From positions 1 to 64,000 of the forward strand of contig JBBRPR010000007.1 of NCBI GenBank assembly GCA_038227875.1: a stretch of DNA of 64,000 bases, written 5' to 3'. Position numbers and translations under genes: made by a program. The notes under the pieces were generated by a model that did no database searches, was not told where the DNA came from, and saw only the letters and a program-made list of their open reading frames with translations. Positions 40,398-64,000 of this stretch are shown here, piece after piece. The DNA comes from Planctomycetota bacterium. Its GTDB lineage: Bacteria > Planctomycetota > SZUA-567 > H5-PLA8. Numbering within the stretch: position 1 is the stretch's first letter; every line of letters begins with the position of its first letter.

Positions 40398-40561
40398 TAA
40401 TCTCACGCAAAGCCGCAAAGACGCAAAGAACAGCAAAGAACGACGGGATTCGGGATTCGGGATTAGGGATTCTGGATTCCCCGTTGTCTTCGAATGCGAA
40501 TCCCGATTCCCGAATCCCGCGTCCCGCCGTTCGTAGTTCATTGCGGCTTTGCGTGAGATTA
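40398..40561. repeat. MITE-like nested inverted repeat element
   Basis: Perfect 21-bp terminal IR TAATCTCACGCAAAGCCGCAA/TTGCGGCTTTGCGTGAGATTA around (CGGGATT)n/(AATCCCG)n arms. Confidence 0.85.
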
Positions 40562-40990
40562 GAACCCAAAGTTGCGCGAGCGTTCCTTCTTAATCTTGCT
40601 GTGCGCCTTTTTCTCGTCGATGCGACGTTGCACGCTGCCGCGCGAGGGTTTGCTTTTTTTGCGGATCTTCGGGTCGCGGTAGATGCTCATCACGAGCATC
40701 GAGAGGCGCTCCACGCACGCGCGGCGGTTGGCTTCCTGCGTGCGCGCGGTGTCGGACGCGATCAGCAAGTCGCCGTCGGCGGTGATCTTATTGGCCGCGG
40801 CGCGGCTGAGTCGCTGACGGGCGCCATCGCTCAGGCCGAGAATCTCCTCCGGCCGGATGCGCAACTCCGCCTTGGTGTTGACCTTGTTGACATTCTGGCC
40901 GCCGGGCCCGCCGGAGCGCGCGTAATGGTAGCGCAACGCGGTGCGGGCGAGCGTAATGCCGGGGGCCAGGGAGATCGTCGCGCTTTCCAT
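40559..40990 (-). CDS. arfB: Alternative ribosome-rescue peptidyl-tRNA hydrolase
   Basis: RSGGPGGQNVNKVNTK (GGQ), RTQEANR, basic C-terminal tail. Confidence 0.93.
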   Translation of the reverse strand: MESATISLAPGITLARTALRYHYARSGGPGGQNVNKVNTKAELRIRPEEILGLSDGARQRLSRAAANKITADGDLLIASDTARTQEANRRACVERLSMLVMSIYRDPKIRKKSKPSRGSVQRRIDEKKAHSKIKKERSRNFGF

Positions 40991-57574: not shown

Positions 57575-58528
57575 TCAGGCTTTGGGATGGGCCGTCAGGT
57601 AAATATCCTTCAACCGCGACGGCGTGAGATGCGTGTAAACCTGCGTCGTCGAGAGACTGGCGTGGCCGAGCAACTCTTGAACACTGCGCAGATCGGCGCC
57701 GCGCTCCAGCAGATGCGTGGCATAACTGTGGCGGAGCGTGTGCGGCGTAGCGCCCGGGGGCAGGCCGGCTTCAGCCAACCTCTTCACCAGGATGCGACGC
57801 ACGCTACGAACGTCCAACCGCGTGCCAAATCGATTTACAAAAATCGGCGAGGTCGGAATGGCTTCCGACGCGGGCAAATCCGTCCGGCCATTGGCCGCTT
57901 CCAACCGGCGCAACAACCAGCCGTGCAATGCCTGCATGGCGCAGTTTCCAACTGGAAGCATTCGTTCCTTCTTGCCCTTGCCGCGAACCTTGAGGAGCCC
58001 GCGCTCCTGATCCACGTCTTCCATGTTCGCGCCAACCAGTTCCGACACGCGAACACCTGCGCCATAGAGCAATTCGAGAATGCAGCGGTCGCGTATATCG
58101 AGCCAGTGAGCCCCACTGACCGATTCAACCAGCGTGCGCACTTCCGATTCCGAAAGACATTTCGGCAGCGTGCGCGGCATCTTGGGATTGTGGATGCCTT
58201 CCAGCGGTGAATTTTCAACCAGCTTGCGCTTCACCATGAATTTGTAAAAGCTGCGCAGCCCCGACAGGCGACGACCCAGCGTCCGCTTGCTCGTACCCTT
58301 GGAATTCTGGTCGGCGAGAAAGGCGCGGAGGCGGTTGCGTTCGACGTTCTGCGGAAAGCTGATGATGTCGCCGCGTTCTTCAAGGAAGTTGACGAACGCA
58401 GAGAGGTCTTCCGAATACGCTTTAATCGTATGCGGTGAGCAGCCACGTTCGTTGGTGAGGTAGGTGAGGAAGAGATCCACAAACTTCTCGGACCCGTTTC
58501 CCCCCCGGGACGGTTCGCGTTCGATCAT
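57575..58528 (-). CDS. xerC: XerC/XerD tyrosine recombinase
   Basis: SPHTIKAY, G.RVSEL, GKGKKER, PHTLRHSYATHLL, QELLGHASLSTTQVYTH. Confidence 0.85.
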   Translation of the reverse strand: MIEREPSRGGNGSEKFVDLFLTYLTNERGCSPHTIKAYSEDLSAFVNFLEERGDIISFPQNVERNRLRAFLADQNSKGTSKRTLGRRLSGLRSFYKFMVKRKLVENSPLEGIHNPKMPRTLPKCLSESEVRTLVESVSGAHWLDIRDRCILELLYGAGVRVSELVGANMEDVDQERGLLKVRGKGKKERMLPVGNCAMQALHGWLLRRLEAANGRTDLPASEAIPTSPIFVNRFGTRLDVRSVRRILVKRLAEAGLPPGATPHTLRHSYATHLLERGADLRSVQELLGHASLSTTQVYTHLTPSRLKDIYLTAHPKA

Positions 58529-60265: not shown

Positions 60266-60501
60266 TTCCAACAATGCCGCAAGATCCTGCAACGAATTGT
60301 TTATTCGGCAGTTGCAAGATTATCTAAAATTCGGATCTGGGCCGATCTGAGAAACCATTCCGATTCATGCAAAACAATTTCAAATGCGAATTAATGCAGG
60401 TATGACCGCGCGAACACGCGAGACGCGACTTGATGAAAGACAGTCTGCTTGCATAATGTCGATTACGAAGATTACATTCCGACGTCAGCCCTGCAACATC
60501 C

Positions 60502-60549
60502 GCCATCTTAGCTCAGCGGTAGAGCAACGGTTTTGTAAACCACCGTAGG
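60502..60549 (+). pseudogene. tRNA-Thr(TGT) 5' fragment, probable att junction
   Basis: GCCATCT TA GCTC AGCGGTA GAGC A ACGGT TT TGT AA [ACC] ACCGT AGG, then no T-arm or 3' acceptor strand. Confidence 0.85.
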
Positions 60550-60631
60550 CACTTTATGTATACTTTCAAAGTCTTACTTCATAGGTAAACGGCGTTCAAC
60601 GCTTTCAATAACTTTACTCCGACTTTCGCAA

Positions 60632-60653
60632 AACCACCTCACAACCGCCTCAC
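60632..60653 (+). repeat. Tandem 11-bp direct repeat, putative integrase arm sites
   Basis: AACCACCTCAC AACCGCCTCAC, about 85 bp from the tRNA break. Confidence 0.55.
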
Positions 60654-60765
60654 ACGATTACCTACGGTTTTCGCAGCGGGAATACGTGCCCGGCGTCCGT
60701 GCTTCCAGGCGGCCGGTGCGCCTGTAGGACTTGCCGGGCGCGTCGGCTGTGATAAAACTCGAACC

Positions 60766-60990
60766 ATGAGCCAACAAGGGACACTTATCGAATTTCTGAG
60801 AGCACAAGGACTGAGCGAGTTGCACGCGAAGGTGATGAGGGTGCGGTTCTACGAATGGATGAGTAAAAGCGGGAGGATGCCAGATTCAGTCGGCAGCGCT
60901 CTGCGCGCGCATACATACGCCTTCAAGAATCTTGAGGGACCGTGGGCGGAGTACCAGGCCATGAGGGCAGCGCGCGGCCGCAAGCCATAG
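60766..60990 (+). CDS. Hypothetical element protein
   Basis: 74 aa ORF; weak SD. Confidence 0.45.
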   Translation: MSQQGTLIEFLRAQGLSELHAKVMRVRFYEWMSKSGRMPDSVGSALRAHTYAFKNLEGPWAEYQAMRAARGRKP

Positions 60991-61027
60991 TTTTACTGCG
61001 CCACTCCTCACCGCCCCTACTGCTGGT

Positions 61028-61606
61028 TCACGCCACCGCAAACGTACAGCCTGTCCCTGGCGTGTTATCCCAGTCCACGAGATGGTTGTCTACGCCGACG
61101 TTGGACGACGCTTGCGCCAACGCGATGTCATTGTCCATCTCGGCATATACGCTGAATGTCTGGCCTGCGCTGGCGACGACTTGGCCGGTGTCGTATAGAA
61201 CCGTCCCGGTCGCCGGCGTGATGGCACTGGCGAAAGCGGTGCCGCCTGTCACATGCGCGAAGTCGAGCGCAGGCGTGGGAGTCAGCCAGTAAAGAGAGTA
61301 GGCCGACGGCGTGCCGCCAAACGCGCTAGTGTTCACCTGAAACCATATCTCTTTGCCCACATCCCCGGAGCCGGCCGTGAAACTCCAGATGCTGCGGTCT
61401 AGCTTGATGGTCGCGCTGTTGTGCTCCCAGCCCATCTTCAACGGCGTGGTGTATGTGCCGTCAGATGCGAAGTTCCAGCCACCAGAATAGGTGTAGTTGC
61501 GAAGTACACCCTGAAAGCTCGTTGTGATTGGGACTGGAACAGGGGTGATCGGCGAGCGCGCATACGTTCGCGGTCCCCAAAATGCCATCGCGTAGCCGCC
61601 AGCCAT
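61028..61606 (-). CDS. Phage hypothetical protein, beta-rich (virion/fibre-like composition)
   Basis: Rich in G/T/S/aromatic residues; TGATG coupling to the upstream ORF. Confidence 0.65.
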   Translation of the reverse strand: MAGGYAMAFWGPRTYARSPITPVPVPITTSFQGVLRNYTYSGGWNFASDGTYTTPLKMGWEHNSATIKLDRSIWSFTAGSGDVGKEIWFQVNTSAFGGTPSAYSLYWLTPTPALDFAHVTGGTAFASAITPATGTVLYDTGQVVASAGQTFSVYAEMDNDIALAQASSNVGVDNHLVDWDNTPGTGCTFAVA

Positions 61607-61800
61607 CAGTTTAGTTCCGCCCGTAGATTTATCGCGTCGATTCTCTCGTTAATGGTGTCGATATTCTTCTGCTCAAGTGGCGAGACTGGACGCCCTTCGT
61701 TTCGCGCAGCATCGCGCATGGCCGCAATACACATCTGCATGAGTCGCAGTGCTTGGGCACGAGGGAGATCTTCAGTCTTGAAAGTTTTCGGGCCAGCCAT
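61606..61800 (-). CDS. Small helical phage protein
   Basis: SD GGAG; coupled within the operon. Confidence 0.6.
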   Translation of the reverse strand: MAGPKTFKTEDLPRAQALRLMQMCIAAMRDAARNEGRPVSPLEQKNIDTINERIDAINLRAELN

Positions 61801-61802
61801 TT

Positions 61803-61952
61803 TTATTTACTCCATCGCCATCTGCGCGTTGCCGTCGTTCGACACTTCGGACAATCCGTCTTTTCAAGGTCGCGGCGGGCCTTCGCTGCGTCGCCAAATG
61901 TCGTGTGCTGCGCGGAATGTCCGCAACGGTGTTTAGCTACGATGCGTGCCAT
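61803..61952 (-). CDS. Small Zn-ribbon-like phage protein
   Basis: CGH...CPKC; ATG one nt after the terL stop. Confidence 0.55.
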   Translation of the reverse strand: MARIVAKHRCGHSAQHTTFGDAAKARRDLEKTDCPKCRTTATRRWRWSK

Positions 61953-61953
61953 A

Positions 61954-63234
61954 TTAGTACCAGCTCCGTGCTGGCCGATCGGTGGGCACACTTACCCAGC
62001 CTTCCTTACGTGCGAATGCTGCCATCGAGAGCGCCGACACAAGATTGTCCGGCTCTCCGTGGTAGCGCCAGATTCCGCCCTTGTACTCACATTTGTAGTT
62101 CCGCATTTCTTCGAGCAGATTGGTCAAGCATTCCGGCACGCTGATTTCCTGCCGTTCGATGATCAGCGCCAGGGCTTCGACAATGGCGGTTTTATTCTGC
62201 CACACTTGATAGATAAGCCGGTGTTTCGGGCACGCTGCTTTGTAGAGCTTCAAATACTCGTCGCCCTTGCCCTTTGCCGGCGCGCCGCCGCCGGTCGCGT
62301 CGAGTACGACCAGCGCATCGCCCCATTGCCGCGCCAGCGTGCCTACGCGTTTAGCCTGTACCGCGTGCTCCATGCCGAGCGGAAATATCTCGGTGTACTC
62401 AATCACGCCGGTTTCGATGTTGAGCACGACCACGGCAGACGGGTCGCGCGTCTTGCCTATGTCACAGCCGATGACGAAACAACCGGGGCGGGCTTCCAGC
62501 GCCTCACCGCGGATAATCCGGTCGATCTGCGAGCCGGGGAAACAGGTATCGGGCGCGTCGCCTTTGAGCGTTCCCTCCCATTCGAGTTCAAATCTCCATT
62601 TTACGGTTTGAGATTTTGCGATCTCTAATTCCAGCTTGCCGCGCTCCGTCATGAACGCCGGGCCCATGCGCGAGGGGATGAGCCAGCTTTTGTAGCGCGG
62701 CGCGCCGAAGTCCACGGGGTTCGATTCCGTGCCGGGTTCCGCCTGCCCCGGCGCGAAGTAGCCTTTTGCGTACCATGAACCGGGGCGCATCTGGCCGAGC
62801 ATTAATATACGTCCCTGCGTCGCGCCGATGACGGGGCGGATCACGCTTTCATAGTCGTCTTGGGACACGTCTTGAATTTCGTCGATGATCACCAGATGAC
62901 AGCCCTTTGAGCGAATATTTTTAGCGCGTTCAAGTGAGCGGAATTCGGCTTTGGATCCATTTTTGAAGAATATGCGCGTGGGTCGCGTGAGCGTTTTTTC
63001 AACGTGCTGCTCGATGCCTTCAACCTTCCAGAATGCTTCAAGTATTTCTGTCTCTTGGCTGCTCGTCGGCGTGGCAATCAAAGTCTTACCCCCACGCCGG
63101 CGATGCAAGCTTTGAACAATGATTTCATCAGCGGCAACATAGCTCTTACCCAGCTTGCGCCCACCTGCGAGCAAACGGAATCGCGCCGGGCTGAAAATGA
63201 TTTCTTCCTGCCAATCGCTAAGACATAATTCCAC
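61954..63234 (-). CDS. terL: Phage terminase large subunit
   Basis: GGRKLGKS Walker A, IIDEIQD Walker B, GCDIGKTRDPSAVVV nuclease motif, DATG. Confidence 0.9.
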   Translation of the reverse strand: MELCLSDWQEEIIFSPARFRLLAGGRKLGKSYVAADEIIVQSLHRRRGGKTLIATPTSSQETEILEAFWKVEGIEQHVEKTLTRPTRIFFKNGSKAEFRSLERAKNIRSKGCHLVIIDEIQDVSQDDYESVIRPVIGATQGRILMLGQMRPGSWYAKGYFAPGQAEPGTESNPVDFGAPRYKSWLIPSRMGPAFMTERGKLELEIAKSQTVKWRFELEWEGTLKGDAPDTCFPGSQIDRIIRGEALEARPGCFVIGCDIGKTRDPSAVVVLNIETGVIEYTEIFPLGMEHAVQAKRVGTLARQWGDALVVLDATGGGAPAKGKGDEYLKLYKAACPKHRLIYQVWQNKTAIVEALALIIERQEISVPECLTNLLEEMRNYKCEYKGGIWRYHGEPDNLVSALSMAAFARKEGWVSVPTDRPARSWY

Positions 63235-63237
63235 ATG

Positions 63238-63561
63238 CTAGGTTCCAAGTAGTTGAGCCGTGCCCGGCCGCACAATTTTCAGTTCAGCAATGGCGGGCTT
63301 TTCGTCGACTACTTCCGGCGTGTCGGACTGCCCCAGCTCATTCTTCCCGAGCCATATCAACAGCGCCGGGTTGCCCTTTTTCGCTGACTCCCATTGCAGC
63401 TCGAGCAGCGCGATACGACGCAGCGCCCGAGCCTTCTTGACGATTTCAGGGAATCCCCGGCGGATTGTCGTCTCGTCAACGCCCAGCGCGTCGGCAATCA
63501 TCACGTTGGAAGCGCCGGCGGTTGCCATGCGTTCGACTTCGGCGGGGTCAAGGTTCTTCAT
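63238..63561 (-). CDS. terS: Phage terminase small subunit-like HTH protein
   Basis: IADALGVDETTIRR HTH; GNPALLIWLGKNELGQSD; directly upstream of terL. Confidence 0.75.
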   Translation of the reverse strand: MKNLDPAEVERMATAGASNVMIADALGVDETTIRRGFPEIVKKARALRRIALLELQWESAKKGNPALLIWLGKNELGQSDTPEVVDEKPAIAELKIVRPGTAQLLGT

Positions 63562-63654
63562 GTTGCAGCGCTCCAGATTTGCGCCGCCCGCGCGCCGCCC
63601 TAAGATGACAGCGCGCAGACGGTTCGGACCCCGCACACATGCGGTGCCCTATCT

Positions 63655-63942
63655 TTAAGCCTTGCGAGGACCACAGAAGGCTTGCATCCGGGCATAGAGC
63701 GCCGCGTCGCTGGCGTTGATTGGAACGGCGGTCGGCACGTCCAGATTTTTGCCACCGGGCGCCGTCGGGGAGTCCATGCCGCTGGGTTCTGCCGATGGCG
63801 TGACGATCCTGCCGCCGCCGGGCGGGATCGGTGTCGGAGCGCTGCCTGCTGAAGACTTGCGAACTTCAGCGAACACTGCCGCCATCATTGCCGGAAAGGG
63901 TGCTGGCGGCTGCCGGGATGCTTCCGTTGCTGACTGGTACAT
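63655..63942 (-). CDS. Hypothetical Pro/Ala-rich phage protein
   Basis: SD GGAGGAG; 95 aa. Confidence 0.55.
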   Translation of the reverse strand: MYQSATEASRQPPAPFPAMMAAVFAEVRKSSAGSAPTPIPPGGGRIVTPSAEPSGMDSPTAPGGKNLDVPTAVPINASDAALYARMQAFCGPRKA

Positions 63943-64000
63943 TTGGGACTCCTCCGTTTGTGGTTACCGTTGCCGTCGCGGTCAATTGCCGCTCAAGGGT

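Follow-up and report, generated by a model that had tools for sequence, protein, structure and literature searches.

The DNA analyzed here (the window) comprises the first 64,000 nucleotides (nt) of contig JBBRPR010000007.1 from a Planctomycetota bacterium (NCBI GenBank assembly GCA_038227875.1). Toward its right end it carries the 5' half of a tRNA-Thr(TGT) gene, behind which a 13.0-kb element with phage-like genes begins and runs on, beyond the window, to an intact copy of the same tRNA gene. The source assembly amounts to 9.34 Mb in 176 contigs and is 88% complete; the contig itself, C7 in the following, has 215,837 nt and is numbered as the window. L001 denotes a 19-kb region of C7 around both tRNA copies (L001 5866-7389 corresponds to C7:63866-65389), other contigs of this genome (G000) are given by their C numbers, and those of relatives are preceded by the number of the genome.

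On the forward strand, positions 60502-60549 read as an acceptor 5' strand (GCCATCT), a D-arm and an anticodon arm (ACGGT-TTTGTAA), followed by ACC-ACCGT-AGG and then by non-tRNA sequence, thus representing the first 41 nt of tRNA-Thr(TGT), an extra ACC and GTAGG. A first-pass annotation made from the letters of the window had described a tRNA gene broken after the anticodon arm, with neither T-arm nor 3' strand in the window, and both descriptions hold: ARAGORN called no tRNA gene in the window, and neither the cognate T-arm nor the 3' strand could be matched there with up to three mismatches allowed. Rfam at gathering thresholds had no match in the window; at relaxed thresholds the fragment reached 26.4 bits against the tRNA model, compared with a gathering score of 29, and as an RNA it folded no better than its shuffles (z 0.07). 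A split or intron-containing tRNA, including one with a group I intron, was rejected, as no Rfam intron or tRNA match lies 3' of the fragment and no second half lies nearby. Apart from the fragment, Thr(TGT)-type sequence was found only in the intact gene and, on other contigs, in a Thr(CGT) fragment. The fragment is a tRNA remnant, not a gene.

The 3' half, for which the first-pass annotation had proposed a search downstream and a genome-wide tRNA scan, is present outside the window as part of an intact gene linked to the element. ARAGORN called 81 tRNA genes in the whole assembly, two of them Thr(TGT) (C7:73499-73572 and one within an array on C25); on C7 this is the only tRNA gene in all, hence there is no other tRNA inside the element. 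Against the Rfam tRNA model the intact gene reaches 72.1 bits, and it folds into a cloverleaf at -28.8 kcal/mol (z -3.99). According to a repeat finder, L001 2502-2541 and 15500-15539 form an exact direct repeat of 40 nt, on the same strand and spaced by 12,998 nt, and an exact repeat of this length inside 19 kb is far beyond chance. In the alignment of both copies, identity begins exactly at tRNA position 1, the sequences upstream of it being unrelated, and extends over 40 nt, a single 3-nt gap (the ACC of the fragment) and five further nt, GTAGG (8 aligned columns, ACCGTAGG), before the copies diverge. The junction features are as follows.

60502..60549, + strand: 5' part of tRNA-Thr(TGT), very probably attL; repeat D2, 100% identity over 40 nt, spacing 12,998 nt; Rfam tRNA model 26.4 bits.
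60542..60544, + strand: extra ACC relative to the intact copy (60539-60541 fits equally well); single 3-column gap in the attL/attR alignment.
C7:73500-73572, + strand: intact tRNA-Thr(TGT), very probably attR; ARAGORN, Rfam 72.1 bits, cloverleaf fold z -3.99.

The DNA between the copies encodes proteins of phage type, including a tyrosine integrase directly in front of the intact tRNA gene, and carries a short repeat at both of its ends (aa, amino acids; ORF, open reading frame; HTH, helix-turn-helix).

60550..64000, strand not assigned: in-window part of the 13.0-kb element, which runs on to C7:73499; genes, repeats and intact tRNA found beyond the window.
60634..60654, + strand: tandem pair of CCNCCTCACA, candidate arm-type integrase sites of the P' arm; motif count.
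60766..60990, + strand: 74-aa ORF, the first ORF of the element behind the fragment, co-oriented with fragment and promoter; coding-like, GC by codon position 0.56/0.48/0.68.
61954..63234 (L001 3954-5234), - strand: terminase large subunit; Pfam Terminase_6N, Terminase_6C and Terminase_3 above cut-off, phrog_2 with E 2.6e-25.
63238..63636, - strand: 132-aa HTH protein upstream of the terminase gene, possibly a small terminase or a regulator; weak matches only (GerE 16.1 bits, phrog_664 4e-4).
C7:63866-65389 (3' end in the window, 63866..64000), - strand: portal protein; phrog_145, E 7.5e-18.
C7:67284-69313 (L001 9284-11313), - strand: primase-helicase in two overlapping frames; PriCT_2, AAA_25, RepB_primase.
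C7:72295-73477 (L001 14295-15477), + strand: tyrosine integrase, frameshifted near 72985; phrog_1, three-frame translation, homologues.
C7:73433-73454, + strand: second CCNCCTCACA pair, also listed as CCGCCTCACA; motif count.

XRE-type and other HTH proteins were recognized in the element by Pfam and PHROGs as well. For the 74-aa ORF these databases returned no family match and the ESM Atlas nothing usable, the sole result from the latter being a 0.86 match of a 192-aa ORF to phage-associated hypothetical proteins. The two primase-helicase ORFs overlap by 270 nt in different frames, and the long ORF starts with ~110 residues that look out-of-frame; together with the integrase, this is probably a second frameshifted gene of the element. 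Within the integrase, the N-terminal 230 residues match phrog_1 (5.3e-11), and beyond residue ~230 this frame turns into arginine-rich nonsense. The +1 frame encodes a catalytic domain with the motifs LRPRE..., ...LRRT... and ...HGL-x5-KHY, which aligns to homologues in the family, two of which (L008 and L006) score 38.3 and 25 bits against PF00589. Between the stop codon and the intact tRNA there are 22 nt, and both integrase frames are located on one side of this junction. As for the short repeat CCNCCTCACA, its four copies in 19 kb compare with 0.14 expected and form two same-strand tandem pairs, one per junction: the left pair ~95 nt inside the left junction, the right pair ~50-65 nt before the intact tRNA in the 3' end of the integrase gene. 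This is the pattern expected of arm-type sites on the two arms of one attP, for which they are candidates.

From the 40-nt repeat, the intact tRNA, the gene content, the adjoining integrase and the paired CCNCCTCACA repeats, we conclude with high confidence that the fragment is the attL of a 13.0-kb phage-derived element whose integration into the tRNA-Thr(UGU) gene was opposite to the usual orientation. The configuration shows the tDNA part of the signature used by the Islander survey of integrated islands: one contig holds both the intact tDNA and its directly oriented cognate end-fragment, with the 5' fragment (60502) upstream of the tDNA (73500), both on the + strand and separated by 13.0 kb, inside the range of 2-200 kb. 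Identity comprises the tRNA 5' part from position 1 onward, and element-derived DNA, comprising the integrase 3' end and the arm repeats, stands upstream of the rebuilt gene, the upstream sequences of both copies being unrelated and a -10 box of the family type lying upstream of the fragment. A plain decayed duplicate of the tRNA gene with no mobile element involved would account for the truncation itself and for nothing else seen here; given a break exactly at the anticodon arm, integrase and phage genes between the copies, arm repeats at both junctions and a pattern that is repeated at other tRNAs, we assign next to no probability to it.

Mechanistically, the free element would present the end of the integrase gene, a 22-nt spacer, tRNA positions 1 to ~46 and the left-end sequence in this order, and its attP would recombine with the chromosomal tRNA-Thr gene inside the shared 40-nt block. 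By analogy to the anticodon-centred sites of Islander islands, the most likely crossover site would be the anticodon loop, whose 7 nt are flanked by the inverted halves of the stem. This would displace the host promoter together with the original 5' half to the left end as attL, while attR (C7:73500-73572) would become a complete chimeric gene composed of the 5' half of the element and the 3' half of the host. Transcription of the rebuilt tRNA would have to start from element DNA, either by read-through from the co-oriented integrase gene or from an unrecognised or non-consensus promoter. The part of attL to the right of the crossover would be derived from attP, so the extra ACC may go back to attP and attB having differed on that side, outside the overlap, or to a later slippage in a functionless copy. 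Since tyrosine recombinases do not generate target duplications, the ACC is not a target-site duplication, contrary to its first-pass description as a duplication at the junction; it is a difference between the repeat copies. As the integrase and probably also the primase are frameshifted, the element is probably stuck in place.

Because the identity block runs toward the 5' end of the tRNA, the native promoter would be displaced and the leftover fragment is of the 5' type. In front of the fragment the following site was found.

60430..60457, + strand: promoter-like site TTGATG-16-CATAAT; one site in the scan versus 0.7 expected.

This count is not significant by itself. Boxes of the type TTGCAx-N17-(G)CATAAT, at similar distance, precede four other tRNA-Thr genes of the family (L030, L032, L038, and L040), and TGCATAAT is also found upstream of the 5' fragments on G000:C68 and G008:C106; on these grounds the site is probably the native tRNA-Thr promoter, stranded before the fragment. 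The promoter suggested in the first-pass annotation (TTGCAT-N18-TACATT) is probably out of register, its TTGCAT overlapping the -10 box of the site given above. Of the replacement 5' half and promoter that had been postulated for the far end of the element, the 5' half was found there, in an intact tRNA with 40 nt identical and the integrase adjacent, whereas no sigma-70-like site could be recognized in the 500 nt preceding the rebuilt gene on the + strand.

The first-pass annotation also considered a genetic switch, in which the ACA-decoding tRNA would be disrupted until the element excises; in a variant, the element would bring a separate replacement tRNA. There is a second tRNA-Thr(TGT) call in the array on C25, and tRNA-dependent lysogeny is known in actinobacteriophages, as reported in PMC10865867. 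However, an intact, high-scoring tRNA-Thr(TGT) is rebuilt at the right end of the element and the integrase is frameshifted, which refutes the switch and leaves this explanation hardly any probability. The category of tRNA-dependent lysogeny or disruptive integration was likewise rejected, the target gene itself being rebuilt and no other tRNA lying in the element.

A number of observations weigh against an integrated element of this kind, the missing promoter before the rebuilt tRNA being one of them. The integrase is frameshifted, and its catalytic frame reaches 22 bits against PF00589, under the cut-off of 27.1. Neither capsid nor tail families were recognized in the element by Pfam and PHROGs, which may make it a satellite or a prophage remnant. 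No empty site, the comparison proposed in the first-pass annotation, was found: the left flank (1202 nt) returned one weak 97-nt match as the only DNA match against 40 relatives, and five flank proteins searched by tblastn for synteny at 29 tRNA loci of relatives gave no match, the source organism being alone in its genus. Among the contigs listed from public runs there were no attP/attB joints of the excised form, and metagenome contigs contained no left junction pattern. Moreover, in the one public run that contains all sampled words of the region (X1, the likely source and not independent), the Logan contigs break in both 40-nt copies without any of them spanning a copy.

This last point bears on an assembly chimera, in which the tRNA would be uninterrupted in the cells, the 13 kb would be a free attP circle, and the assembler would have threaded both via the 40 nt. 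As no Logan contig bridges the junctions, the integrated order rests on the deposited assembly and on parallels elsewhere. The Logan contigs of X1, an independent assembly of that run, match L001 in seven pieces, differing from it by a single base and without gaps; they include the frameshift site (record 6, L001 9035-15529) and the sequence on either side of each junction. Against a chimera, the deposited contig runs through both junctions, 40 nt is far below read length so that a normal assembler resolves the repeat, long pieces of flank and element are similar in per-contig word depth (9.4-12.3, a weak measure), and the same integrated layout is found on the single contigs G000:C54 and G008:C106. 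We therefore regard a chimera as very improbable. A run from another study (X2) yielded short contigs of 95-99% identity on both flanks (L001 179-719, 1710-2406, and 16261-19000) and almost none on the element; this hints at an island-free relative, and with no contig joining across it was not used as evidence.

Further searches returned little. The attL/attP core pattern and the terminase were each found zero times in viral contigs. The N-terminal part of the integrase produced 202 pattern matches in metagenome contigs with none confirmed; its alignment retrieved only the four already-known loci from genome contigs and, from viral contigs, two short matches to the arm-binding domain, neither beside a target tRNA.

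By type, this is an island of phage origin that would be either satellite-like or a remnant. Phage satellites such as those resembling phage-inducible chromosomal islands (PICI) carry an integrase, a primase-helicase, regulators and some packaging genes, and no tail genes. The C7 element shares with them a size of ~13 kb, the integrase, the primase-helicase, HTH regulators, the large terminase subunit and the portal, as well as the lack of a recognized tail family. It differs in that capsid, protease or known interference genes were not recognized (Pfam and PHROGs), two of its genes look broken, and it has no known helper.

To place the locus in the context of its genome, all 81 tRNAs were compared with G000 itself, and matches of at least 20 nt and at least 90% identity, outside annotated tRNAs and reaching one tRNA end, were counted; internal matches were dropped, nearly all of them belonging to an 83-nt ARAGORN call on C24 that acts as a dispersed repeat. 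The census yielded 18 tRNA fragments, 14 of the 3' type (one of which, on C76, touches a contig end) and four of the 5' type.

C7:60502, + strand: 5' fragment of Thr(TGT); intact gene 12,998 nt downstream.
C54:33317-33363: 5' fragment of Pro(GGG), positions 1-47; intact gene 20 kb downstream on the same strand.
C68:6569-6607: 5' fragment of Thr(CGT); partner at C11:13695-13766.
C95:18916-18956: 5' fragment of Ser(CGA); partner at C52:3817-3906.

In the Pro(GGG), Thr(CGT) and Ser(CGA) cases, the inner flanks of fragment and intact gene share a short repeat of their own (CTATCACA, GTTACACA or CCTATCAGATTA), and the cargo of these three islands (C54:13170-33363; C68/C11; C95/C52) includes type I restriction-modification and umuDC-like genes. 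Extension to the 17 genomes of the family revealed further Thr 5' fragments ending at tRNA positions 38-41 on G013:C9, G008:C38, G003:C234 and G008:C106. G008:C106 itself also holds an intact Thr(CGT) gene, 21.3 kb downstream of the fragment; the arm repeats at G008:C38 and G013:C9 have matching counterparts upstream of intact Thr(TGT) genes that lie on separate contigs. Both sides of the tRNA-Thr(CGT) gene on C11 seem to have served as targets: besides the 5' fragment on C68, there are 3' fragments of 42 nt (C135:3760-3801) and 25 nt (C24:117780-117804), and the sequence downstream of the C11 gene resembles that of the C135 fragment.

Reuse of a site is also suggested by a remnant of an integrase N-terminus on G008:C106 (41441-41530, - strand; L050 1441-1530), 30 residues long and 73% identical to group B of the integrases described below, which lies just upstream of the 5' Thr(CGT) fragment and hints at an older occupant of the same site. 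Together with the two element genes that look frameshifted, it lends some weight to a composite or older scar on C7, where the fragment would stem from an earlier element, the 13 kb would be the remains of several insertions, and fragment and integrase would not be partners. On the other side, C7 holds a single Thr(TGT) 5' fragment, the same arm repeat pairs stand at both junctions and the fragment is still 100% identical over 40 nt; the probability we give to such a scar is very small.

Compared with known systems, the locus is an instance of the reverse of the classical arrangement. A work by Zhao & Williams (2002) reportedly describes a known case of the 5'-half integration mode. It is cited along with archaeal cases by Krupovic et al. 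(PMC6563490). Of the 3919 islands in Table 1 of the Islander study, 3760 have a 3' fragment and 159 (4%) a 5' fragment, and anticodon-centred sites are given for 2083 of the 3919 in the same source (Hudson, Lau & Williams 2015, PMC4383910). As described there, the 5'-fragment islands resemble the C7 element in their intact tDNA, the cognate 5' fragment upstream in direct orientation, the tyrosine integrase between them, an anticodon-centred attP, which is the likely form on C7, and a length within 2-200 kb; they differ from it in that the C7 integrase is frameshifted and in their share, 4% versus 4/18 here, which is a rough comparison with other filters. The corresponding binomial tail for 4/18 versus 159/3919 is 0.005, likewise rough, since our census applied neither integrase nor coding-sequence filters.

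For classical anticodon-loop integration (Williams 2002, cited in PMC8371274 and PMC4383910), the C7 element shares a likely anticodon stem-loop core, an integrase abutting attP and arm-type repeats, and differs in an identity block toward the tRNA 5' end instead of the 3' end. According to the review PMC8371274, recombinant tRNA genes of bacteria are expressed from the original promoter "with very few exceptions", while pTN3-like archaeal integrases use the tRNA 5' half with expression from the integrase promoter, a mode "seldomly encountered in bacteria". Like these (Cossu et al. 2017, as reported in PMC8371274), the C7 element has an attB in the tRNA 5' half, restores an uninterrupted tRNA and places its integrase co-oriented with and directly upstream of it. 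Unlike the pTN3-like integrases, which are 'suicidal' enzymes of the SSV type with attP inside the integrase ORF (same source), the C7 integrase ORF is unsplit and stops 22 nt before the tRNA-like segment, its host is a bacterium, and its N-terminal domain is unrelated (phrog_1-type); assignment to the SSV/pTN3 type was rejected on the position of this stop. The integration mode is thus a known, uncommon minority class of which this instance is new; the new part is its frequency in this genome and the same pattern in relatives.

The integrases at these sites fall into three groups (A, B, and C) by BLASTP. Group A contains the C7 integrase and the 396-aa one of G004, joined by relatives in G006 and G012 that have classical arrangements; it was found in 4 of the 17 family genomes and 4 of 401 phylum genomes, our own counted. 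The G004 integrase, the nearest homologue with the same orientation, ends 21 nt before a tRNA-SeC, of which a second copy of the first 77 nt is found at a contig end. All group A loci (L006, L007, L008, L005, and L001) have short tandem repeats within or directly behind the final ~40 nt of the integrase gene, beside the tRNA segment (CCGGCACA, GTGCCGG, AGCCTCAA or CCGCCTCACA), and these are present for either tRNA direction. Group B consists of proteins of ~550 aa (C11 and G008:C106; 39% identical) from 7 of the 401 phylum genomes, all belonging to this family. At its 16 distinct loci, the integrase start faces the tRNA 5' end in 11 cases and the 3' end in 4, with no nearby tRNA in one; orientation was taken from coordinates, and a 5' fragment was confirmed at 4 of the 11. 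Group C comprises a 499-aa protein on C54 (31711-33210, - strand; 30.9 bits against PF00589) and a 526-aa protein on C95 (19061-20641, + strand), 31% identical to each other. The group C genes begin ~105 nt behind the 5' fragment and point in its direction, so that transcription of the integrase from the native tRNA promoter would be possible only when the element is integrated.

Groups A and B each include loci of either polarity, the short spacing between integrase gene and tRNA being the same in both cases, from which it would follow that the tRNA half of attP flips easily around a symmetric anticodon-arm core. On a tentative basis, and at a likelihood clearly below even, this planctomycete family may represent a hot spot of 5'-half tRNA targeting, with at least three integrase groups, easily flipping polarity and displaced promoters that read into element genes only when integrated.

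To the left of the fragment, the flank is host core as judged from its genes, which include the following gene.

57575-58528, - strand: XerC equivalog, 2 kb left of the fragment; TIGR02224, 338 bits versus a cut-off of 335.

It was rejected as integrase of the element, being the dimer-resolution recombinase of the host. Further left lie a glycosyltransferase and a thioredoxin-domain protein, and the right flank holds a Kelch-repeat protein. A SymR-like Rfam match at L001 13897-13967 (32.7 bits versus a gathering score of 61) was taken as chance. Elsewhere in the window, a dispersed repeat of ~35 nt was observed at 40400-40431 (- strand) and 40543-40568 (+ strand), with ~70 other sites in the genome, often as inverted pairs ~100 nt apart. 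It matches the middle of the 83-nt 'tRNA-Lys(ctt)' call on C24 (109711-109793), which for this reason is doubtful and probably not a tRNA. Separately, a stretch of less than 6 kb on C25 (15917-21842) contains 30 same-strand tRNA genes, among them the second Thr(TGT) call and many short ones (69-73 nt); this may be a mobile or phage-type tRNA array.

For annotation, the locus implies that a 5' tRNA half with a good promoter is to be read as the upstream end of an island, whose other end here is 13 kb off, and neither as a switch nor as an essential gene that is broken; software that finds islands or counts tRNAs needs to allow the 5'-fragment orientation. The frequency of the mode and the occurrence of both orientations within integrase groups provide a natural data set on how attP gains either tRNA half, and on whether elements use displaced tRNA promoters. 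With respect to the organism, its only canonical tRNA-Thr(UGU) gene would now be chimeric, with a decaying mobile element as the source of both its 5' half and its transcription signals.

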